Below, piece after piece: positions 1 through 46,221 of a stretch of DNA of 46,221 nucleotides (position 1 is the stretch's first letter; each line of letters begins with the position of its first letter). The notes under the pieces are model-generated. The model had not been told where the DNA came from, did not search any database, and saw only the letters and a program-made list of their open reading frames with translations. The translations under genes and the position numbers were made by a program. The stretch is from a virus: the UHGV virus genome UHGV-0126501; one strand, given 5' to 3'.

Positions 1-10
1 TTAATTTTCT

Positions 11-43
11 CTGCAAAACCTCTGCAAAACTCTTCTGCAAAAC
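11..43. repeat. Three direct repeats of CTGCAAAAC (11-19, 22-30, 35-43) next to the int 3' end; candidate arm-type Int-binding sites of the attL P' arm
   Basis: Repeats read directly; position at the int-proximal prophage end matches the lambda P' arm layout. The core crossover site probably lies left of the window. Confidence 0.45.
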
Positions 44-49
44 TGGTCG

Positions 50-1180
50 TCAAATGACCAGTTTTTTCCACTCCTTACCACGTGCATCGTTGTAAATATC
101 GGTCATTTTTTGATTCGAATGGCCCAGCAAAATTTGGGTGTCGATCCCTTGCTCCCTGAATAAACGCTCCGACAATGATCGCTGTTCATGGAAAGAGGGT
201 GGGGTACCATTAGCGCACCAGTTGTAATCTACAGAATCCCGCGCTTTTTTAAATGCAACTGTTAACGTTGCTGGCTTAACCATCCCGCCGCGCTTGGCTG
301 TCCCTTTCGCATGATGGTGGTGCAATAGCCACGGACTAAGAACGCAATCGCGACAGGATGACACCACATCATCCAGGGTGAGATTTAATTTATTGCAACG
401 CAGAGCAAGAGGGATGGCAATCCGGGTTCCTGTTTTTTGCTGTTCGACATGAAGATAACCATCCCGGATATCCGAAAATTGCATTTTGCAAATATCTGAA
501 AGGCGCTGGCCTGTCATCAGTGCCAGCAGCATGCCGCGCTGTAAAAAGTAACCATCCTTTTCCGCTGCGTTATAAATCATCATCCACTCATCAAAAGTCA
601 GTCGCTGTCTTGATATCCGCACCTGCGGTTTTTTTGCCGATTCTGCAGGGTTAAAGCCTGGCGGAACATCGCCTGTTTGCTGAGCTTCCCGGAAAACATC
701 GATCAGTACCTTCCTGAAAATTTGTCCCATTCTGTTATGTCCTCTGGCCTTGTACTCTTCCAGCACCGATACCACATCTTTTACGGTTATGGCATCTAAC
801 GGTCTGGTGCCAAAACGTTCATCAAATACCCTGAGAGGGGCCGCTTTTTGTTTCAGCGTGTTGAGTTTGATCTCTCCGTTTTCATATCTTTCCTGTTGAA
901 TTTTTCTGTAATTATTCAGAAAAATGGAAACGGTTGATGAACCGCCGGTATCATTAATAATTTTCTCCTGCAGACTGAGCATTTGTTCCATTTGCTGCCT
1001 GGCAAGACGGCTGTTCGCTTCTGCTGCAATAGTTTCTGCCAGTTTCTGGTCAATACTGCCGAGACCGTGATTTTTGCCTGTTATGGGATGCCTGTAACGC
1101 CAGTAAACTTTGTTATTTCTTTTGTCAAAATACGGAGATAATCCCGGAACATCAGTTTTATATTTTCGCGGGCGCGCCAT
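50..1180 (-). CDS. int: Phage integrase, tyrosine recombinase
   Basis: 376-aa ORF at the prophage end, transcribed toward the att arm; C-terminal region has the R..H..R..Y catalytic-domain look of lambda-family integrases; overlaps xis. Confidence 0.85.
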   Translation of the reverse strand: MARPRKYKTDVPGLSPYFDKRNNKVYWRYRHPITGKNHGLGSIDQKLAETIAAEANSRLARQQMEQMLSLQEKIINDTGGSSTVSIFLNNYRKIQQERYENGEIKLNTLKQKAAPLRVFDERFGTRPLDAITVKDVVSVLEEYKARGHNRMGQIFRKVLIDVFREAQQTGDVPPGFNPAESAKKPQVRISRQRLTFDEWMMIYNAAEKDGYFLQRGMLLALMTGQRLSDICKMQFSDIRDGYLHVEQQKTGTRIAIPLALRCNKLNLTLDDVVSSCRDCVLSPWLLHHHHAKGTAKRGGMVKPATLTVAFKKARDSVDYNWCANGTPPSFHEQRSLSERLFREQGIDTQILLGHSNQKMTDIYNDARGKEWKKLVI

Positions 1181-1406
1181 CTTCCAGTATCCTCTTCAAG
1201 GCTGGGTGATCTGTAGCGATCACCTCCGGCTTGTTTACCATTCCGACAAAGCGAGCTCGCGGATCCACTCGCCAGTGTCTTCCAACTTTTTTGGGAAGAG
1301 GAAATATCATTCCGGCTTTAGCGTATTTACTTAACGTGCCCGGAGTAGGGACCGGATCGCTGAATTCCTCTTTTGCCCACTCAGTGAGCAGAATAAGTCT
1401 TGCCAT
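1158..1406 (-). CDS. xis: Excisionase (Xis-like)
   Basis: 82-aa ORF immediately upstream of and overlapping int; motif ...MIFPLPKKVGRHWRV... resembles the lambda Xis winged-helix region. Confidence 0.7.
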   Translation of the reverse strand: MARLILLTEWAKEEFSDPVPTPGTLSKYAKAGMIFPLPKKVGRHWRVDPRARFVGMVNKPEVIATDHPALKRILEDGAPAKI

Positions 1407-1470: not shown

Positions 1471-3927
1471 TTAAAAATCAGCCTGACTCGGGATCAGTTT
1501 TTGCCAGATAGCTGAAACGTATTTTGCCTGGTAACGGGCGTCATCAAGTGCATTATGGCGCTCACCTTCGAATGGAATAGCCGTTCTGGCATCGAAGTCT
1601 ATGGCTTTCCCCAGCTCAACGATTGTGCGTACATCGCGATCGTTGTAGTAACGCCACGGGCAGGGGATCCCCTGCCGTTCGTATGAACGGCGCAAAATCG
1701 TGTTGTCGAAGTTGGCTCCATTTCCCCAGACCTGAACAAAAAATTCACCGGAGTTTTCGTCGATAAATTCTCGTAATTGTAACAGTGCATCATCTAACGG
1801 GATTTCATCGGTCATAATGGCAGATTGCGCTTCGCGTGATTGCTTCAGCCACCATTTAATAGTGTCCCGATCAATGACTCCGCCAGCAGTTTCCAGATCG
1901 ATAGTCTTACTAAATTCCGGTCCCATATCTCCGGTTTGCGGATCGAAAAATATTGCACCTATTGAGATAATCGGGGCATCAGGATTTTTTCCCATGGTTT
2001 CGAGGTCAATCATTAGATGGTCACACGTCCTGCTGGTGGATGTGATTTCGTGATGACCGTTCACCTTAATTGAGTGATCTGCCGCCTCGCCAGTTTTATT
2101 ATCGCTGGCGTGGTCCTGAGCGCTGCCAGCGTTCTCCTTGTGTGGATGTTCAGCGCCTTCCATTTCCTCCGGATCGTTTTCCTGAACTTCAACCTGATTC
2201 TCTTCATCGAATGTTTCCTGGTATGTTGCGTCGCACATCACCGCGCCACAATCAGGGCAGTTGCCGCCACCGCTCTGACCGCAGGCGGTGCAGACTTTTT
2301 CCGGTTCCTGTTGCGCTACTGGCTCAGGTTGTTTCGTTTCTGGCTCGTTTTGTAACTCATTTGGGCTGTTTTGTTCCGCTTTCTGGTCGTTCTGTTCCGT
2401 TTCTTGCTGGTTCTGATTCACTGAATCGCGGGTTTCAATCCCCTTCACCCATTTCGGATCATTCGGGTCGCTAATCCCTGCAACAAATTCACCGCGAGAG
2501 GCCGCAAGCAACTTATCGGCGTCAGGCTGGCTGGTATTGGCTGCCTGCATAATTTTGTTTACTTCGTCAGCGGTAACTTTTACCTGATTAACCGGATCTA
2601 TCTGTGCCTGAGTATCCAGCGATTGCGTGTCCTGGCGATGTTCAGTTGTATCCGGCTCCATTGCTTCAGTCGTTGCCTGTTCATCTGCCATTGCGTCAGA
2701 CGGTTGTGATTTTTCCTCATTATTTTTTTCTTCTTCTGTTTCGCATTCAGCAGCCAGTTCGCGGTTAACTTCTTCCAGGATATCTTTTTCCGGTGTATGT
2801 CGTGCAGCAGCGAGAGTTTCCTCGGTAGGGTTCTCGTGATCAGTCTCCGTTAAATAGGCGTTGATATACCCCTGAAGGCGTCCCGGGTAATGATAAAACT
2901 CAGGGTGTGCGCTCCGGATAAGTGCAAAAATAGCGGCGCGGGAATAATCCAGGATACCCGGGATTGCGCGAAGTGCTGCGGACCATTCTTTGAACGGACT
3001 TTCTTTCTTCCGGACGACTTCTTTTGCGCGACGATAAACGCTGCCCGGAATTTCATAAATATTAAAATCCATCGGAAGTGTGGCCGCTGCAATCTCCACA
3101 TCCAGCGTATCGAAGGTGTGTACTAAATTCGGATTGCGATCGGTTTTGTTCCCTCCACCGGCATTAGCACCGGAAGCCGTGCGGGTGATGCGTGAAACAC
3201 GATTTCCTTTCATCCACTCTTTTGTCAGCAGACCGCGATCGGTGTAGTCAGCGCCCAGGTATGCTTCGAAAAAAGCAGTCATTAGCCCCAGGCCTGAATT
3301 GCCAGGATTAGGGAAAACTTTGTCAGTATCACGCACCAGTTTGTGGAGATCGCGAATTTCCAGTGGATCGAGCAGACTGGTTTTATGCGAAATAGCGAGG
3401 GCAGTAACAGCTGGTAGTTCTTCAGCCCGTGCAATGTGTAATGCCTGGAGTTCGTCGCGTGAAACGTGCGTTACCGGTTTTTCGCTGCCGCGTTGAGCAA
3501 GCCAGCGAATGGGCAGTTCCTGACCGGAAACCGGCAGAAGCATGTTCTCCTCAATCTCAGCCATGTCTTCGCCGTTGACGTTGGTATTGTCAGTGCTGGC
3601 TGGTTTATCCTGAACAGAGGGCGAGGGCGCGATAAGTACCATTGTGATACCATCTTCCCCGCCTTTTTCGTATCGGTTGCAGAATTCGGTATCAAACACG
3701 CCTTCCGGAGGAAGGTCATTCACAACGGGTAAATGGACGCGAACAGGTTTTTTAAAATCCTCTTCGTCAAATCCGGCATCGTCCATTGCGACAACACCGC
3801 GTGATATTGCAACCGATAATTTTTTTGCTGTGCGCCAGTAAAAACCGCCTTTAATCCCAAGACGTTTTCTGACTTTGTCATTTTTGGCTTCGTAATATAG
3901 TGCAATTTCTTCTTTATCAGTGCTCAT
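1471..3927 (-). CDS. Large exonuclease with C-terminal DEDDh (DnaQ-like) 3'-5' exonuclease domain, annotated in prophages as exodeoxyribonuclease VIII-like
   Basis: 818-aa ORF; C-terminus has IDLETMG (Exo I), ...WGNGANFD... and [11 protein letters not shown] (Exo III, H-x4-D) motifs; acidic central linker with a Cys4 cluster ([20 protein letters not shown]). Confidence 0.75.
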
Positions 3928-8470: not shown

Positions 8471-8687
8471 TCAATATGTCGAGACGAAGGTATGTTTCGG
8501 CGCGCAGCCAGGCTCTGTAATCCGGGAGCATTTCGGGGCTGTTACACCAGCGGTTTGTTGCTGCAACATTTAATACATGAGCCTGATAAAGGCTTTTCAA
8601 AAAATACATGTCGAACCTCCTCTGGTTCTGTTGATTGGGAACCACAGATTATATCCGGAGGAAGGTTCGGCACCAGATGAGGTAGCC

Positions 8688-9797
8688 ATGCGTGATTACG
8701 CAAAAGTTTCTCCGCGATTCTGGCTGGGAGAAACGGGGAGAGAACTTAGAAAGGCGGGTGCAGAAGCGCAAGTTGTTGCTTTTTACCTGATGACATCCCC
8801 TCACGCAAATATGCTGGGTTTGTATTACCTGCCAGTTTTATACCTTGCTCATGAAACCGGGCTTGGTCTGGAAGGGGCTTCAAAGGGGCTTAAAAGGGCT
8901 GTTGAAGCTGGTTTTTGTAGCTATGACCATGATGCCGAGATGGTCTGGGTCCATGAAATGGCAGCCTGGCAGGTTGGGGAAACGTTGAAGCCTGGCGATA
9001 ACCGTTGTGCAGGTGTCAGGAATGAGTATGCATCATTACCTGAAAACGCTTTTCTGTCAGCGTTTTACGACAGATATAAAACGGATTTCCATCTGGATGT
9101 GAGGCGGAATAATAGCCGAAATTCGGTAAGGGGCTTCGAAGGGGCTTTTAAGGGGCTTCGAAGCCAAGAACAGGAGCAGGAGAAAGAACAGGAACAGGAC
9201 AAAAACACTATGGTTCATGGCGAAAAAAACACCATGAACCAGGCAGGGGATGTTCAGACCGTAAATTCTGGTCAGCCAGCAGGCACGACACCGGAAGCCG
9301 ATTCGGCGTATGCGCTGAAAGCCGATTCGGGCGCTGTGCAGCAGGCGATGACCGCAGGGTCGGAGCAATCACACCAACTGCAGCAGCCTGAAGCCGATTC
9401 CGCCATTCAGCGGGAAGCCGATCGGGTAGTCCCGGAAAACACCGGGCGGCCTGTGGGACGAGTGGATTATCCGGATGCGTTCGAACAGGTCTGGCGGGAA
9501 TACCCGTTGCGTGCCGGGGCAAACCCGAAGAAATCCGCATTCAGTGCCTGGAAGGCCAGATTGCGCGAGGGGGTGCCACCAGAGGCCATGCTGGATGGTG
9601 TGATGCGTTACGCGAGATACCTAGCGGCGACCGGGAAAGCGGGAACGGAATTTGTTCAGCGAGCGACGACGTTTTTTGGACCGGACCGGAATTTTGAAAA
9701 CCCCTGGTTGCTCCCGGTAAGCGGCACGAACAACCAGCGTTGTGTGAATCATATTTCTGAACCGGACACCGAAATTCCGCCTGGGTTCAGGGGGTGA
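8688..9797 (+). CDS. Putative replication initiation protein (O-like / DUF1376-type N-terminus, DnaT-like C-terminus)
   Basis: ATG at 8688 with GAGGT SD; position of a replication gene in a lambdoid early right operon; contains two clusters of 11-bp-spaced direct repeats and a QE-rich linker. Confidence 0.55.
   Translation: MRDYAKVSPRFWLGETGRELRKAGAEAQVVAFYLMTSPHANMLGLYYLPVLYLAHETGLGLEGASKGLKRAVEAGFCSYDHDAEMVWVHEMAAWQVGETLKPGDNRCAGVRNEYASLPENAFLSAFYDRYKTDFHLDVRRNNSRNSVRGFEGAFKGLRSQEQEQEKEQEQDKNTMVHGEKNTMNQAGDVQTVNSGQPAGTTPEADSAYALKADSGAVQQAMTAGSEQSHQLQQPEADSAIQREADRVVPENTGRPVGRVDYPDAFEQVWREYPLRAGANPKKSAFSAWKARLREGVPPEAMLDGVMRYARYLAATGKAGTEFVQRATTFFGPDRNFENPWLLPVSGTNNQRCVNHISEPDTEIPPGFRG
8870..8900. 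repeat. Iteron-like direct repeats, cluster 1 (AAGGGGCTT x3 at 11-bp spacing)
   Basis: AAGGGGCTT at 8872 and 8883, AAGGGCT at 8894. Confidence 0.5.
9128..9165. repeat. Iteron-like direct repeats, cluster 2 (AAGGGGCTT x3 at 11-bp spacing), followed by an A-rich stretch; candidate ori
   Basis: AAGGGGCTT at 9128, 9139 and 9150, inside the replication gene as for lambda ori within O. Confidence 0.5.
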
Positions 9798-11332: not shown

Positions 11333-12333
11333 CCACTTTTACCAATAGCAAACTAACAGACGAATACGTTTCAAATGCAACGTTGATTCGGCTCATTCTG
11401 TGGGCTGACCAGCACAATAGTCATTATGTTGCAGCGGCTCTGCGCGAGCTACAGGAGCGCCGCAAGGCTGATAGTGTGTCTGTAGAAATCAACGACGACA
11501 TGGCTTACGCATTCCATCACGCATTGTCAGATTCATCGCCAGGCGCTGATGAAGTAGAGGAAATTAAGGCCGGTTTGCGTGCTGCCTTTGCCAACGTCAC
11601 CACCCAACCAGCACCAGTAGTGCCGGAATTTGAAACATGGTTTAACAGCCAGGAGTCAGGGAGGAGTATATGCAGCACACAGATTCGTCGTTCCCTTCAG
11701 GAAATTTCATGGAACGCCTGCTGCGCCGCCATGCTTCAGTGTGTCGAACCTGCAAGTAATCATGAAGAGTTGTCAGAGGAGAACGGATCATCGCTTCAAT
11801 TGCGCAATTTAATCCGGCAGCGCCATGCTGAATGGTCAGATAAGACGTTTGGCTGTGTTGGTCCAGTTGGCCCGCTGAAACATCTCTCAAAAGAGGCACT
11901 GGAAGCCGCAGCCGAACCAGACGATCTTAGCGAGTGGGCTGATATGCAGTTTCTGTTGTGGGATGCACAGCGCCGTGCTGGCATCAGCGATGCTGAAATT
12001 ACCGCTGCTATGGAAGATAAATTGAAGATCAACATGGAGTGCCAGTGGCCTGAGCCAAAAGATGGTGAACCTCGCTTGCACATTAAAGAACACTGCAACT
12101 CTCCGGTAACTCCGGATGGTTGGATAAGCTGTAGTGATGCAGTTCCTGCTGAATATTGCGATGTGATTCTTCTCGATGATCTCGGGAATGTATTCCCCGG
12201 TTCCTGGGATAAGGTTTTTTGCCCCACTCGTGGCGGGAATAAGATGGCTTTTGTGGACAAAGACGGCGTCGAAGTAGAGAGCTCAACTCACTGGATGCCG
12301 CTACCGGAACCACCGCAGGAGGTGAATCAATGA
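11329..12333 (+). CDS. DUF550/DUF551-type protein (MazG-like dNTP pyrophosphohydrolase-like N-terminal part, DUF551 C-terminal part)
   Basis: Recalled family signatures: ...RQRHAEWSDKTFG... and C-terminal ...DGWISCSDAVPAEYCDVILLDDLGNVF...; common in lambdoid nin/ea regions. Confidence 0.5.
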   Translation: MTTFTNSKLTDEYVSNATLIRLILWADQHNSHYVAAALRELQERRKADSVSVEINDDMAYAFHHALSDSSPGADEVEEIKAGLRAAFANVTTQPAPVVPEFETWFNSQESGRSICSTQIRRSLQEISWNACCAAMLQCVEPASNHEELSEENGSSLQLRNLIRQRHAEWSDKTFGCVGPVGPLKHLSKEALEAAAEPDDLSEWADMQFLLWDAQRRAGISDAEITAAMEDKLKINMECQWPEPKDGEPRLHIKEHCNSPVTPDGWISCSDAVPAEYCDVILLDDLGNVFPGSWDKVFCPTRGGNKMAFVDKDGVEVESSTHWMPLPEPPQEVNQ

Positions 12334-12450: not shown

Positions 12451-12730
12451 AAGGAAACAAAACAGAAACAACAATTGCCGTTATCTGTTGTTACCATGGC
12501 AAGTAAACGTATCTCAGGCGAGCGCATTGCGCCGTTCTGACGCAGATAAACTAGCCTGGATAGATGGTGCTGGCAATAAAAAATAGCGTTTTCTTATCGG
12601 TGTCGGTAAGATTGCTGCGGGTGCTTGAGGCTGTCTGCCTCGGGCATGCCACTGTAAGGCAGACAGAGAAAAGCCCCAGTTAACATTACGCGTCTTGCAG
12701 GACGCTTAACATTAATCTGAGGCCCAATCT

Positions 12731-12943
12731 ATGCCATACAAACATAGGTTAGCCTCTTACGTGCCGAAAGGCAAGGAGAAGCAGGCTATGAAGCAGCAAA
12801 AGGCGATGTTAATCGCCCTGATCGTCATCTGTTTAACCGTCATAGTGACGGCACTGGTAACGAGGAAAGATCTCTGCGAGGTACGAATCCGAACCGGCCA
12901 GACGGAGGTTGCTGTTTTCGTGGACTACGAATCTGAGAAGTAA
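12731..12943 (+). CDS. Mok-like in-frame N-terminal extension of Hok (modulator of killing)
   Basis: Upstream in-frame ATG gives a 70-aa product, analogous to chromosomal MokC/HokC where Mok is an N-terminally extended Hok. Confidence 0.45.
   Translation: MPYKHRLASYVPKGKEKQAMKQQKAMLIALIVICLTVIVTALVTRKDLCEVRIRTGQTEVAVFVDYESEK
12788..12943 (+). CDS. hok: Hok/Gef-family type I toxin (small membrane peptide)
   Basis: MKQQKAMLIALIVICLTVIVTALVTRKDLCEVRIRTGQTEVAVF... matches the Hok/Gef signature (TM helix, LTRKxLCE, periplasmic tail); SD AAGGAGAAG. Confidence 0.9.
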   Translation: MKQQKAMLIALIVICLTVIVTALVTRKDLCEVRIRTGQTEVAVFVDYESEK

Positions 12944-13352: not shown

Positions 13353-13838
13353 ATGGCTGAGATTGTTGAAGGAGTGCACTATCTTTCGGTTGATGATCTT
13401 ACTGAAATCAATCGCCTTTTAATTGAGCTTCAAACACCAGATGAACCTGTAGGTGTGCTGAGTGTTGATAATTTAAGTTCTTCTCAGGCCCGTCCCAGCA
13501 TGGTTCGATGGTATGAACAGACTAATGACATGTTTGTACTGGCATCGGTATTGATTGAAAGTCTGATTCAGAATCATCCGTTTGCTAATGCGAACAAACG
13601 AACAGCTATGATGGCTGGTTACGTCTTCTTGTTGTTGAATGGCTATGAGTTAACAGCACCAGGCGATGAAATCGTGGAAATGGCAGAGGGACTGGCCTGC
13701 AAAACCTATACTCGAGAAGATCTCGAGAACTGGTTGTGTTATTGGTCTCGTGCGTATGACAGTCGGGAATTATGTAAAACAGGCGCAACTATTGTTTTGT
13801 ATGAAACTATCAAGCTTAAAATAGAACAGCAAAACTAA
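13353..13838 (+). CDS. Doc (death-on-curing) / Fic-family toxin
   Basis: Doc-type Fic motif HPFANANKRTA (H-x-F-x-[DN]-[AG]-N-K-R). Confidence 0.8.
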   Translation: MAEIVEGVHYLSVDDLTEINRLLIELQTPDEPVGVLSVDNLSSSQARPSMVRWYEQTNDMFVLASVLIESLIQNHPFANANKRTAMMAGYVFLLLNGYELTAPGDEIVEMAEGLACKTYTREDLENWLCYWSRAYDSRELCKTGATIVLYETIKLKIEQQN

Positions 13839-20715: not shown

Positions 20716-20792
20716 GCGGGTATCGTATAATGGCTATTACCTCAGCTTTCCAGGCTGATGATGTGGGTTCGATTCCCGTCACCCGCTCTCCA
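20716..20792 (+). tRNA. tRNA-Gly(UCC)-like element, probably degenerate
   Basis: Cloverleaf can be drawn: acceptor GCGGGTA, D-arm with GG, anticodon stem TCAGC/GCTGA with loop TTTCCAG (anticodon TCC), T-loop GGTTCGATTCC. But A7-C66 mismatch, two G-U pairs in the T-stem, and a TCTCCA 3' end instead of CCA. Confidence 0.45.
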
Positions 20793-27481: not shown

Positions 27482-29049
27482 ACGGGGAACTGGTGGATAT
27501 TCATGGGCAGCCTTTACGGCAAAGCATGGGATATTCTGGTGGTGGTTCCGGGTTCGGTGGGCAAATGGCAGAATGGCTGCCTGCACCGGAAAGTGCCGAC
27601 GTGGCGCTCTTACCTTCCATTCAGCTGGGTAACGCCCGTGCGGATGATCTGGTCCGTAACAACGGTATTGCCGCAAATGCTGTGGAAATTCATAAAGACC
27701 ATATCGTCGGCCACATGTTTCGCCTGAGCTACCGACCCAACTGGCGCTGGCTGGGGATGTCGGAAGCTGATTCGCATGCCTTTATTGAAGATGTGGAGGC
27801 GGCGTGGATGGAATATTGCGATCCTGTGTTTGGTTCGATGGATGTGGAGGGACGTCGTTCGTTTACCGAATTTATTCGTGAAGGGGTGGGCGTTCATACG
27901 TTTAACGGTGAAATTTTTGTCCAGCCCGTATGGGATACGGAATCCACGTCATTATTCAGAACAAAATTCAAGACCATCAGTCCGAAGCGCGTCAGCACGC
28001 CCGGTTATGGCATCGGCGATCGTTTTATGCGTGCCGGAGTGGAAATCAACCGTTACGGAAAGGCGATGGCTTATCATGTTCAGAACGATGACTGGCCTGG
28101 CTACGGTGTCAGTAACTGGACACGGATTGCGGCGACGCTGCCCTCCGGGCGGCCGGGAATGATCCATGTGTTTCAGCCACAGGAGGACGGACAGACGCGC
28201 GGGGCCAACCAGTTTTATTCCGTGATGGAGCGCCTCAAGATGCTCGACACACTGCAGGCCACGCAACTGCAGTCGGCGGTGGTGCGGGCGATGTATGCCG
28301 CGACGATTGAATCCACACTGGATTCGGAAAAAGCATTTGAATATATCGCCGGGGTGGGAAATGGCGGTAAAAATCCCCTGAACACCATCATGAAAGGCTA
28401 TGCGCGCTATTACGCCACCAATACGGTAAAGATGGGTGGGGTTCGTATTCCGCATCTTTATCCGGGGGATTCACTGAATCTGCAGACAGCACAGAATGCG
28501 GATAATGGTTTCTCTGAACTGGAAAAGGCGCTGTTACGTTACATTGCTGCCGGACTGGGCATGTCCTATGAGCAGCTTTCCCGTGATTATTCACAGGTCA
28601 GTTATTCCAGTGCCAGGGCATCCGCCAATGAGTCGTGGCGGTATTTTATGGGGAAACGAAAATTTGTGGCCAGCCGACTGGCGTCACAGATGTTTGCCTG
28701 CTGGCTGGAGGAAGCCCTTATTCGCGGTGTGATCCGCCCGCCGAAATCCCGTTTCTCATTCTGGGAGGCCCGTTCCGGGTGGTGTCGTGCCGAGTGGATT
28801 GGTGCCGGCCGCATGGCGATTGATGGCCTTAAGGAGGTGCAGGAGGCGGTGATGCGTATTGAAGGTGGCCTGAGTACATACGAGAAGGAGCTGGCCCTGA
28901 TGGGAGATGACTATCAGGAGATTTTCCGCCAGCAACTGCGTGAAAGCCAGGAGCGACAGGCTGCCGGTCTTCCCCGCCCCATCTGGATAAAGGATACGTT
29001 TCAGCAGCAGATCCGACAGACAACGGGAGGAAAAGGCGATGCGTCGTAA
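27478..29049 (+). CDS. B: Portal protein (lambda gpB-like)
   Basis: Colinear similarity to recalled lambda gpB (GGGxGFGGQMAEWLP..., ...RMAIDGLKEVQEAVM.IE.GLSTYEKE...). Confidence 0.95.
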   Translation: MNGELVDIHGQPLRQSMGYSGGGSGFGGQMAEWLPAPESADVALLPSIQLGNARADDLVRNNGIAANAVEIHKDHIVGHMFRLSYRPNWRWLGMSEADSHAFIEDVEAAWMEYCDPVFGSMDVEGRRSFTEFIREGVGVHTFNGEIFVQPVWDTESTSLFRTKFKTISPKRVSTPGYGIGDRFMRAGVEINRYGKAMAYHVQNDDWPGYGVSNWTRIAATLPSGRPGMIHVFQPQEDGQTRGANQFYSVMERLKMLDTLQATQLQSAVVRAMYAATIESTLDSEKAFEYIAGVGNGGKNPLNTIMKGYARYYATNTVKMGGVRIPHLYPGDSLNLQTAQNADNGFSELEKALLRYIAAGLGMSYEQLSRDYSQVSYSSARASANESWRYFMGKRKFVASRLASQMFACWLEEALIRGVIRPPKSRFSFWEARSGWCRAEWIGAGRMAIDGLKEVQEAVMRIEGGLSTYEKELALMGDDYQEIFRQQLRESQERQAAGLPRPIWIKDTFQQQIRQTTGGKGDAS

Positions 29050-30655
29050 TTTATCGCATATTGCCGCCATGGCATTTAATGAGCCGCTTTTACTGGAACC
29101 CGCCTATGCGCGGGTTTTCTTTTGCGCGCTGGGTAAGGAGATAGGGGCCGGCAGCCTTGCTGTTCCTCAGCAGGCTGTTCAGCTTGATGCTGATGGTATG
29201 CAACTGGCTGTGACTGACTATATGGCGGGTGGTCAGCGTCCGGCAAAGAGTTACCAGGTGAAGAATGGCATCGCCATTCTGCCGGTGAGCGGCACGCTGG
29301 TGCATAAACTGGGTACCCTGCGCCCTTACTCCGGCATGACAGGTTATGACGGCCTGACAGCCCGTCTTCAGATGGCGGTGAATGATCCGGATGTGCGCGG
29401 CATTTTGCTGGATATCGACAGCCCGGGCGGTCAGGCTGCCGGGGCGTTTGACTGTGCTGACATGATTTACCGCCTGCGGGAACAGAAGCCCGTGTGGGCG
29501 CTGTGCAATGACATGGCCTGTTCAGCCGCCATGTTGCTGGCGGCAGCCTGTACGCGTCGGCTGGTCACGCAGACGGCAAAAATTGGTTCGATTGGTGTGA
29601 TGATGGCGCACACCAGTTACGAGAAACAACTGGCACAGGAAGGGGTGGACATCACGCTGATTTACTCCGGGCGGCACAAGGTTGACGGCAACAGTATTCA
29701 GGCATTGCCGGCAGGTGTGCGTGCAGATTTTCAGCGCCGTATTGATGAGGCCCGCCGGATGTTTGTCGACAAGGTGGCGCTTTATACGGGGCTGAGTTCA
29801 GAGGCGGTGATGAATACCGAGGCTGCCGTTTATGACGGTCAGGCAGGCATTGATGCAGGTCTGGCTGATCAACTGATTAATGCTGCAGATGCCGTTGAAG
29901 TGATGGTTTCTGCACTGAATGACTCTGTTACGAAGGAGAATGCAATGACTGTTAAAAATCTCACCGTTGCTGAAGCGGTGGCCCAGGAAAATCAGCGCGT
30001 GATGGGGATCCTGAATTGTCAGGAGGCGAAAGGGCGCGAGCAACTGGCGCAAATGCTGGCAGGTCAGCCTGGAATGACGGTTGAGCAGGCGAAAACGTTG
30101 CTTGCAGCTGCGCCGGTTGCCGGTACTGACAGCACGGGTGATCAGATTATGGCGCTGCCGGAAGCAAAGGGGCGTGAGCAACTGGCACAGATGCTGGCAG
30201 GTCAACCTGGGATGACGGTGGAGCAGGCGAAAGCGTTTCTGGCGGCAGCCCCTGCTGCCAGTGCTGCAGGCACAGGCGATCAGATTATGGCGTTGCCGGA
30301 AGCTAAAGGGCGTGAACAACTCGCGCAGGCGCTGGCTGAACAGCCGGGAATGACCGTTGACCAGGCAAAAACGTTACTGGCGGCGGCACCGGTTGCCGGT
30401 TCTGCAAGTGTCGGCGATCAGATTATGGCGCTGCCGGAGGCGAAAGGGCGCAAGCAACTTGCACAGGCACTGGCAGAACAACCGGGAATGACGGTGGCGC
30501 AGGCGAAAACGTTGCTGGCAGCCGCACCGGCGGCATCGCAACCGTCACAGGAAACACTTTTTGATCGCTTTATGGCACAGCATGCTGCCAGTGCGGTTTC
30601 CGGAGGCGGAACTGCCGGACACGGAGAAGAAGATCTGCTGATGAGTATGCCGTAA
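29039..30655 (+). CDS. C: Head maturation protease / scaffold (lambda gpC/Nu3-like, S49/ClpP-type) with C-terminal tandem repeats
   Basis: S49-peptidase-like core (…DIDSPGGQAAGAF…SIGVMMAH…) followed by four repeats of a 46-aa unit. Confidence 0.85.
   Translation: MRRNLSHIAAMAFNEPLLLEPAYARVFFCALGKEIGAGSLAVPQQAVQLDADGMQLAVTDYMAGGQRPAKSYQVKNGIAILPVSGTLVHKLGTLRPYSGMTGYDGLTARLQMAVNDPDVRGILLDIDSPGGQAAGAFDCADMIYRLREQKPVWALCNDMACSAAMLLAAACTRRLVTQTAKIGSIGVMMAHTSYEKQLAQEGVDITLIYSGRHKVDGNSIQALPAGVRADFQRRIDEARRMFVDKVALYTGLSSEAVMNTEAAVYDGQAGIDAGLADQLINAADAVEVMVSALNDSVTKENAMTVKNLTVAEAVAQENQRVMGILNCQEAKGREQLAQMLAGQPGMTVEQAKTLLAAAPVAGTDSTGDQIMALPEAKGREQLAQMLAGQPGMTVEQAKAFLAAAPAASAAGTGDQIMALPEAKGREQLAQALAEQPGMTVDQAKTLLAAAPVAGSASVGDQIMALPEAKGRKQLAQALAEQPGMTVAQAKTLLAAAPAASQPSQETLFDRFMAQHAASAVSGGGTAGHGEEDLLMSMP
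30023..30550 (+). repeat. Intragenic tandem repeat, about four copies of a 138-bp unit in the 3' part of gene C
   Basis: Units start at 30023, 30161, 30299 and 30437 (EAKGREQLAQ.LA.QPGMTV.QAK..LAAAP......GDQIMALP). Confidence 0.85.
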
Positions 30656-44971: not shown

Positions 44972-46171
44972 ATGTCTGTTCTGATTTCCGGTGTGCTGAA
45001 GGATGGCACAGGAAAACCTGTTCAGGGGTGTACGATCGTTCTGAAGGCAAAAAGAACGACCGATACCGTGATAGTGAATACCCTTGCCTCAGAAAATCCG
45101 GATGAAGCCGGGCGTTACAGCATGAATGTTGAGCCGGGGCGGTATGCCGTTTCGCTTTTTATTGAGGGGTATCCACCGTCATATGCCGGTGACATTACTG
45201 TGTATGCGGATTCGCCGCCGGGCACGCTGAATTATTTCCTGGGAACGGTAAGTGAAGATGATTTGCGGCCAGATGTGCTTAAGCGTTTTGAAGAAATAGC
45301 GTCTGAAATTAATCGTCTGGCGGAAGAAGTAAGAAAAAAACAGCAACAGGTCAGTGCTGATACTGAAAAAGTAAGCAATGCAGCCAGTAAAGTACAGCAG
45401 GCTGAGAGAAGCGCTTCAGAGCATGCGGAGTCCGCCAGAAACAGCGCCATATCTTCTGCGACCAGTGAAAGGGATGCGGCATTGCATGCGAAGAATGCAC
45501 AAAAATCTGCGCAAGACGCGGAAAGGAATGCGCAGCAAACCGGGCAACATCTGCAGGCTGCTAAAACTGCAAGCGAAGAGGCAAAGGAATATGCACGACA
45601 GGCCGGGGCATCAAAAGATACAGCCGGGGAGCATGCAGAGAAAGCAAAAAAATATGCAGAAGAAATCAAGTCTCAGGGCGAAAAAGCCAATATATCGGCC
45701 GATAAAAAAAACATACTGGTGCGACTGGGCGATGGTCTGTTTGTGAATGGCACCCACCCACTGATCCCCAAGATGGGGGTGCACAATTATACAACCACAC
45801 TGAATAATTTCCGGAGTCTGCCAGACGGAACCCGCGTATATTCACTTTCTGTTGGCGTCAGCAATCCGTTGAATACGGGCGTAATTGGCGGATATGGTAT
45901 AGCGATTGCTCCCATAATTACCCCTGGTTATCTTTATCTTGATGAGCAAAAGAAATGCATACCGGCGCAGTATCTGATGGACTCGGTTACAGCCACAGCC
46001 AGTGAAATAAAAATAGCGCTGAAGGTTGTGCTGACAGGAAAACCACAGTATGCAGTAGATGTGTCGGATCTGGAAACACGGGAGGAGGGGGATGGCAGCG
46101 GCAATATTGGTTGCAAACTTTCCATCCGCATACTGACCGGAACAACATTACGACAAAACGGAATAAGCTGA
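44972..46171 (+). CDS. stf: Side tail fibre-like protein (Stf N-terminal domain homolog) with central coiled-coil/Ala-Lys-rich region
   Basis: MSVLISGVLKDGTGKPVQGCTIVLKAKRTTDTVIVNTLASENPDEAGRYSMNVEPGRYAV... parallels the recalled lambda Stf N-terminus. Confidence 0.8.
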   Translation: MSVLISGVLKDGTGKPVQGCTIVLKAKRTTDTVIVNTLASENPDEAGRYSMNVEPGRYAVSLFIEGYPPSYAGDITVYADSPPGTLNYFLGTVSEDDLRPDVLKRFEEIASEINRLAEEVRKKQQQVSADTEKVSNAASKVQQAERSASEHAESARNSAISSATSERDAALHAKNAQKSAQDAERNAQQTGQHLQAAKTASEEAKEYARQAGASKDTAGEHAEKAKKYAEEIKSQGEKANISADKKNILVRLGDGLFVNGTHPLIPKMGVHNYTTTLNNFRSLPDGTRVYSLSVGVSNPLNTGVIGGYGIAIAPIITPGYLYLDEQKKCIPAQYLMDSVTATASEIKIALKVVLTGKPQYAVDVSDLETREEGDGSGNIGCKLSIRILTGTTLRQNGIS

Positions 46172-46172
46172 G

Positions 46173-46209
46173 AAAAAAGCGTGCTTCGCAAATCCAGGGC
46201 GAAGCACGT
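46173..46209 (-). terminator. Intrinsic terminator oriented for the minus strand
   Basis: A6 run, then GCGTGCTTCGC ... GCGAAGCACGT hairpin; reads as hairpin + U-run on the minus strand. Confidence 0.5.
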
Positions 46210-46221
46210 CTGAATGACACC

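Follow-up and report, generated by a model that had tools for sequence, protein, structure and literature searches.

Three tandem repeats beside int are probable arm-type integrase sites in the attL of an ompW prophage

The left end of the viral genome UHGV-0126501, analysed here as a single stretch of 46,221 nucleotides (the window), carries three exact copies of the 9-mer CTGCAAAAC next to a gene for a lambda-type integrase. We consider it very probable that these repeats are the P'-arm (arm-type) sites of the prophage's integrase and form part of attL. This is the function that a sequence-only reading of the window had proposed for them, and it gains support from a further copy of the motif on the P arm, from the arm-binding domain of Int and from the corresponding layouts of phage 21 and e14.

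A sequence count places CTGCAAAAC at positions 11-19, 22-30 and 35-43, all exact and all where the sequence-only reading had put them. The first 70 nucleotides of the window can be written TTAATTTTCT CTGCAAAAC CT CTGCAAAAC TCTT CTGCAAAAC TGGTCGTCAAATGACCAGTTTTTTCCA. A repeat search extended the unit to 11 nt (YTCTGCAAAAC, at 9-19, 20-30 and 33-43) with spacings of 11 and 13 nt, and TRF called the same array independently. All three candidate sites are on the plus strand. P'1, nearest to the core, consists of the unit CTCTGCAAAAC at 9-19 with the invariant 9-mer at 11-19, and it is conserved in relatives; P'2 is a second CTCTGCAAAAC at 20-30 (9-mer 22-30) and P'3 is TTCTGCAAAAC at 33-43 (9-mer 35-43). 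The 46-kb window holds five copies of CTGCAAAAC against an expectation of 0.84, and five or more were seen in 0 of 100 shuffles. The two copies outside the array, at 13697 and 23368, are at chance level.

The array lies between two genes and starts 7 nt past the stop codon of int (50-52), a minus-strand open reading frame, immediately beyond which the sequence-only reading had seen the repeats. On its other side, the first four bases of the window (plus strand) are the last four of ompW, a T followed by the TAA stop codon at 2-4. This gene end, which the sequence-only reading did not contain, was identified from the RefSeq annotation of a 100%-identical stretch in Escherichia coli strain 504239 and from alignment of attL, attB and attR. 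The CTGCAAAAC triplet lies in the 45-nt gap between ompW and int. The first 1500 nt of the window match about 1,700 complete E. coli genomes, with RefSeq showing the end of ompW under the match, and the first 90 nt are present in 1,646 of 5,426 complete genomes. Strain 504239 has the same first 90 nt as the window, and base 4 of this stretch is the last of its ompW. The other end of its prophage is bordered by a 126-nt ompW remnant, with yciE after it. K-12 carries the empty site (attB).

Extending the sequence leftwards and aligning attL, attB (K-12) and attR three ways revealed the core, a 34-bp block, TCAGTGTGGTACATGGATATCGATACCACCGCCA, that lies inside ompW and is identical in all three. 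In attL it is located 83-116 nt left of window base 1 (window -115 to -82), with 93 nt between it and the first repeat. The sequence-only reading was therefore right to place the attL core a short distance beyond the window, and the core is not far from the repeats. To the right of the core, attL has the last ~85 nt of ompW in a diverged form brought by the phage, so that window bases 1-4 close a replacement 3' end that starts at the core. In the more distant prophage PPompW_132418 the shared block is reduced to CAGTGTGGTACATGGATATCGATACCAC, framed by the inverted repeat GTGGTA-N12-TACCAC. These alignments indicate that the prophage is inserted in the 3' end of ompW and brings its own replacement for that end.

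Core sequences are also found joined to other genes. At ~2,790-2,830 of the locus from E. albertii NBRC 107761 (L007), the phage core CCAGTGTGGTACATGG... is joined leftwards to a coding sequence other than ompW, which suggests a secondary-site insertion or a rearrangement at the core. In IMGVR_UViG_643886067_000001 (L070/L133) a fimbrial-usher-like gene adjoins the core, in which a left-half variant, GGTCTGG, replaces CAGTGTGG. Two contiguous attP sequences, L072 and L084, share this variant, which leaves the amino acids of the ompW frame (S-V-W-Y-M) unchanged.

The window stops ~337 bp short of the attR core (window 46160-46221 against 11888-11950 of the strain 504239 locus, L003), and the P arm and the ompW remnant thus lie outside it. 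We read the P arm in a genome that shares the first 90 nt of the window exactly, together with near-identical relatives. Another exact CTGCAAAAC, the fourth, is found in the P arm at the attR of strain 504239 and points the same way as the other three. This is the sole exact copy in 30 kb (L003), and the chance expectation is about 4e-4 to 6e-4 copies in 200 nt. The contiguous attP is seen in several IMG/VR contigs as well as in Escherichia phage 204576. The P-arm copy lies 254 nt from the array. Seven distinct P-arm variants were aligned; they are unrelated to the left of the 9-mer, invariant within it and homologous from there rightwards to the core. Because homology begins exactly at the 9-mer, this copy marks the outer limit of the conserved attP.

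Counted from the centre of the 28-bp core, the P-arm CTGCAAAAC occupies -142 to -134, in the same orientation as the P' sites, which lie at +112 to +120, +123 to +131 and +136 to +144. An IHF consensus, AATCARNNNNTTA, is located in the P arm at -115 to -103; the match, WATCARNNNNTTR, lies 27 nt right of the P-arm site. CTGCAAAAC is thus present on both arms and is unrelated to the GTGGTA-N12-TACCAC of the core. The 93 nt that separate the core from P'1 in the P' arm contain no strict IHF consensus, and no second P-arm site or inverted site resembling lambda P2 was found within 700 nt upstream when one mismatch was allowed. A conserved block, CAGTTAAAAAC, overlaps the IHF consensus and is not included among the arm sites. 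A gapped pattern scan of IMG/VR and a megablast search of the phage collection recovered no contiguous attP for the icd-type phages with CTGCAAAAC, and the P-arm copy is accordingly documented for the ompW group, phage 21 and e14.

We examined the conservation of the array in six relatives identified by integrase homology among contigs representing one genome per species. All three 9-mers and the 11/13 spacing are kept in E. albertii (Int 98% identical), Kluyvera (69%) and an Enterobacteriaceae MAG (65%), the last of which has its prophage at a site other than ompW. Raoultella (68%) has one substitution, T to A in the middle copy, the sole change in a 9-mer among these Int-anchored relatives. 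In Kluyvera georgiana and Enterobacter bugandensis the first copy visible is at the limit of the retrieved sequence, with a 1.5-kb insert between it and int. Across the integrase-homology relatives, differences from the window affect 1 of 108 positions in the 9-mers and 10 of 24 in the spacers (Fisher p = 6e-8). The repeats are therefore not absent from related prophages, but are present in every informative relative. The commonest E. coli variant of window 1-90 has six differences, none of them inside a 9-mer.

A pattern scan of IMG/VR for the triple motif returned 41 loci, a set chosen on exact 9-mers in which the spacers vary. Every one of the 41 adjoins an integrase homologue (48-100% identity to Int) and lies beyond its stop codon, in agreement with the presence of the repeats in relatives. 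The gene upstream is ompW, icd, ushA or a small unnamed ORF. Since the triplet sits beside Int homologues at several target genes, the motif follows the integrase family and not ompW.

Ten loci beyond the ompW group can be singled out (L096, L101, L102, L105, L113-L115, L119 and L130 from IMG/VR, and L011). They have identical triple CTGCAAAAC copies at 11/13 spacing and Int identities of 48-66%, and they belong to prophages at the 3' ends of icd, ushA or the small unnamed ORF. Each carries a replacement gene end, usually with a terminator before the array. In L008, L012 and L106, the int stop is parted from the last CTGCAAAAC unit by an insert of ~1.5 kb that carries an ORF and sits exactly between them.

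This pattern of conservation bears on whether the array has a function at all. Short tandem duplications can arise by slippage, and the repeats could be a functionless product of that process in the 45-nt gap between ompW and int. TRF does score the array as an ordinary 11-nt tandem repeat, and slippage evidently occurs here: E. coli O55:H7 TB182A (NZ_CP038295.1; L136, 401-450) has two CTGCAAAAC units and has lost exactly one unit of 13 nt. However, that strain also has a T7 run in place of T6, with the result that int is frameshifted and extended and its annotated CDS overlaps ompW; the att/int module of TB182A looks like one in decay. Moreover, the 9-mers are constant while the spacers vary across integrases of 48-100% identity and four target genes, a separate exact copy stands 254 nt away at the edge of the conserved attP, and phage 21 and e14 have analogous triplets of other sequence. 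We therefore regard slippage as an extremely improbable origin for the array.

Comparison with characterized and related prophages supports the assignment of the repeats as arm-type sites. Reading the lambda sequence (NC_001416) places P1 at -143 to -132, in the same orientation as P'1-3, and P'1-3 at +53 to +86, abutting the int stop. The prophage in the window resembles lambda in having a full-length Int homologue with the same arm-DNA-binding domain, three tandem direct sites at the int-proximal end of P', and an outer P-arm site at about -142 that is oriented as the P' sites are and has an IHF consensus beside it. Unlike in lambda, the motif is CTGCAAAAC, which is unrelated to the CAGTCACTAT-like sites of lambda; the P' sites, at +112 to +144, are ~60 bp farther from the core than those of lambda; and the core is in a protein-coding gene, the P' arm bearing a replacement for the 3' end of that gene. 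Neither a P2-like inverted site nor an H' consensus was found.

The minimal attP of phage 21 reportedly measures 366-418 bp and includes outer 'dodecamers'. Phage 21 has an Int 50% identical to that of the window and shares the order of features in attP: P-arm copy, IHF consensus, core in a host gene, phage-borne 3' end, three sites and int stop. Its GenBank annotation states that 'attP consists of 3 subsites P1P2P3; consensus YYTTCCCCAAAA', and the annotated subsites have the icd remnant and its terminator on one side and the int stop on the other. The sequence shows TTCCCCAAAAC three times at this place and once more in the P arm, where an IHF consensus comes after it. The motif has its 3' half, CAAAAC, in common with CTGCAAAAC. 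Phage 21 differs in the motif itself, YYTTCCCCAAAA(C), in its target, icd, in the length of the carried gene end (165 nt), in the position of the P' sites (about +220 to +255) and in having a separate terminator before the triplet, whereas here a hairpin overlaps the last unit.

The cryptic prophage e14, in icd of E. coli K-12, has an Int 50.5% identical to that of the window. Three (G/T)TTATCAAAA units come right after its icd remnant and terminator, and its P arm contains GGTTATCAAAAC and then an IHF consensus. Like the window, e14 has the triplet at 11/13 spacing after a phage-borne gene end, and a P-arm copy followed by an IHF consensus. It differs in the motif, (G/T)TTATCAAAA(C) (GTTATCAAAAC), and in the presence of ymfD, ymfE and lit between the triplet and intE. 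The repeats of e14 stay beside the core although intE is 3 kb away, and the ~1.5-kb inserts of L008, L012 and L106 resemble its ymfD-ymfE-lit insert. The integrases of phage 21 and e14 are as distant as some that still use CTGCAAAAC. Judged from their sequences, the three related systems have one architecture and three motifs with CAAAAC in common.

The PPompW prophages of STEC and EPEC belong to the same phage group as the window and have the same integration site. For these a 121-bp att duplication was confirmed by sequencing attP from excised circles (Nakamura et al. 2021, PMC8112680), and this duplication spans the core to the ompW stop. Att is there the duplicated block only, and the term 'arm-type' has 0 occurrences (Nakamura et al. 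2021, PMC8112680). The 21-bp attB-in-prophage sequence of PPompW (PMC8112680) is absent from the window.

The protein predicted to bind the repeats is encoded directly beside them. On the combined evidence of the open reading frame list, Pfam and structure matches, int (50-1180, minus strand) encodes a 376-aa lambda-type tyrosine integrase with an N-terminal arm-DNA-binding domain. Residues 2-71 match Pfam PF09003 (lambda Arm-DNA-bind_1; E 7e-22) and residues 193-367 match PF00589, while residues 14-375 align with the full-length lambda Int structures 5J0N and 1Z1B (E 2e-55). Among the motif-sharing integrases, the N-domain is 47-66% identical and the rest of the protein 49-73%, and thus no extra conservation of the N-domain over the remainder was found in this group. 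Residues G13 and G39 are invariant in the CTGCAAAAC group and are replaced in phage 21 and e14 by N and by S or A, respectively, a pattern that may reflect phylogeny instead of specificity. The overlapping gene xis (1158-1406, minus strand), which extends across the start of int, encodes an 82-aa excisionase (Pfam PF07825 Exc, E 4e-7; RefSeq 'excisionase'). Adjoining xis is an 818-aa ORF (1471-3927, minus strand), the equivalent of which is annotated in RefSeq as an exonuclease or 3'-5' exonuclease; it has a long, acidic, Q/E-rich repetitive middle with a 21-nt repeat at 2329-2419.

The repeats could instead bind another protein of the recombination complex, either the phage Xis or one of the host factors Fis and IHF, and not the N-domain of Int. 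Lambda Xis too binds tandem direct repeats, and a Xis homologue (38-100% identity) accompanies every Int that has the CTGCAAAAC motif; because Xis is always co-inherited with Int, co-occurrence cannot separate the two as binders. In a lambda-type attP, the stretch of the P arm from P2 to the core is where the Xis and Fis sites are placed. Such sites do not form an outer-P' triplet with a lone outer-P copy. The geometry here is that of P1 plus P'1-3 of lambda, which argues for Int as the binder of the CTGCAAAAC sites. The motif also differs among phage 21, e14 and this phage, all of which live in E. coli, and a host factor is thereby excluded. As for IHF, its consensus does not match CTGCAAAAC and occurs separately. 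Overall we judge it very unlikely that a partner protein, and not Int, is what binds the repeats.

The last unit of the array runs into a hairpin. An inverted repeat with 10-nt arms at 39-48 and 56-65 (100% complementary) and a T run at 62-67 together form a probable intrinsic terminator on the plus strand (39-67). The 7-nt spacer places the int stop codon (50-52) in the loop, and the AAAAC of P'3 overlaps the base of the stem. The sequence-only reading had noticed this hairpin but set it at 42-60; the structure stands, with arms that reach slightly farther. Folding of 39-65 as plus-strand RNA gives -14 kcal/mol (z = -5.3), with T6/U6 at 62-67 after it; on the minus strand, which would serve int, the fold is weaker (z -2.9). 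A terminator consensus scan of 1-1600 did not list the hairpin at 39-65, likely because some of the T run is taken up in the maximal stem, paired with the A tract of P'3. Raoultella has a changed loop and an unchanged stem. Both stem and T run are degraded in the L011 MAG, where the upstream gene has its own terminator, and phage 21, e14 and the icd and ushA groups have a separate terminator ahead of the triplet.

From the fold and the T run we infer terminator activity, and we somewhat favour the view that the hairpin is a phage-supplied terminator for ompW, possibly a bidirectional one. It is probably best read as a terminator and not as part of the att machinery. The hairpin and T6 would end ompW transcription, standing in for the native terminator that integration moves ~50 kb away. 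Int occupancy of P'3 at the hairpin base might alter termination of the ompW or int transcript.

Transcription covers the repeats on both strands, past the ompW stop and past the int stop. They could on this basis act as RNA, either in the ompW 3' UTR or in that of int, where the opposite strand reads GUUUUGCAG three times, for sib-like retroregulation or as a binding site for a small RNA or a protein. The stability of the adjoining hairpin would suit such a role. However, prophages with icd, ushA or an unnamed ORF upstream in place of ompW retain the triplet, and mostly a terminator lies between the stop of that gene and the triplet, which is therefore not ompW-specific. Nor is the triplet tied to the int 3' UTR, because it lies 1.5-3 kb from int in four elements (e14, L008, L012 and L106). 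The extra copy in the P arm would have no role in RNA, and no Rfam family matches window 1-100. A function as RNA is accordingly very improbable, and binding by Int is the reading that we develop here.

The proposed attachment site is an attP of ~290 bp with, in order, CTGCAAAAC at -142, the IHF site at -115 to -103, the core, the ompW 3' end and the three CTGCAAAAC sites. The core is a 28-34 bp segment inside ompW, CAGTGTGGTACATGGATATCGATACCAC, that contains GTGGTA-N12-TACCAC. The 3' coding sequence of ompW that the phage carries, ~85 nt long, keeps the gene intact after insertion, and the P' sites run from +112 to +144, with 7 nt between the last of them and the int stop. On the lambda model, residues ~1-70 of Int (its N-terminal domain) would bind the 9-mers and its C-terminal domains the core. 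Bending of the arms by IHF would let a single Int bridge arm and core, and such bridging would assemble the integrative complex and, with Xis, the excisive complex. The positions and conservation of the repeats, the copy on the second arm, the domains of Int and the parallel layout in phage 21 and e14 are observed; binding by Int, and any division of the sites between integration and excision, are inferred.

Several features elsewhere in the window were recorded in the course of the analysis. An Rfam match to the sok antitoxin RNA (RF01794, 117 bits) at 12619-12793 on the plus strand suggests a hok/sok-type toxin-antitoxin locus in the prophage, and a phage-borne tRNA-Gly with anticodon TCC is located at 20716-20788 on the same strand. 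The 11-nt repeat AAGGGGCTTNN occurs in two clusters, at 8872-8898 (2.5 copies) and 9128-9163 (3.3 copies), within a 406-aa ORF (8577-9797). These clusters may be origin iterons inside a replication-initiator gene. A 138-nt tandem repeat (3.7 copies, 80% identity) lies at 30022-30530 in a 538-aa ORF (29039-30655) of the morphogenesis region.

The array is an ordinary feature of a lambda-type integration module, new only as spelled out for ompW prophages, and it leaves the understanding of this recombinase class unchanged. What the finding settles is where a very common E. coli prophage truly ends and how it is built there. Callers that trim prophages at the int stop discard all of the att machinery, as has happened in most of the IMG/VR contigs considered here. 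The ~290-bp attP would be usable for ompW-targeted integration vectors, and the three natural motif variants, CTGCAAAAC, CCCCAAAAC and TATCAAAAC, paired with related N-domains, offer material for the study of arm-site specificity.

The same triplet of 9-mers serves integrases aimed at four host targets, ompW, icd, ushA and the small unnamed ORF. It is possible, although we lean somewhat against it, that CTGCAAAAC is a shared 'arm code', with the same 11/13 spacing, in a clade of enterobacterial lambdoid integrases that have diverged to less than 50% identity and had their cores retargeted. If so, co-resident prophage integrases could occupy each other's arms, helping or blocking the excision of a neighbour, and hybrid att sites would be favoured, for example the off-target junctions in E. 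albertii and in the fimbrial usher gene. A shared arm code would also mean that arm recognition and core recognition evolve as separate modules.
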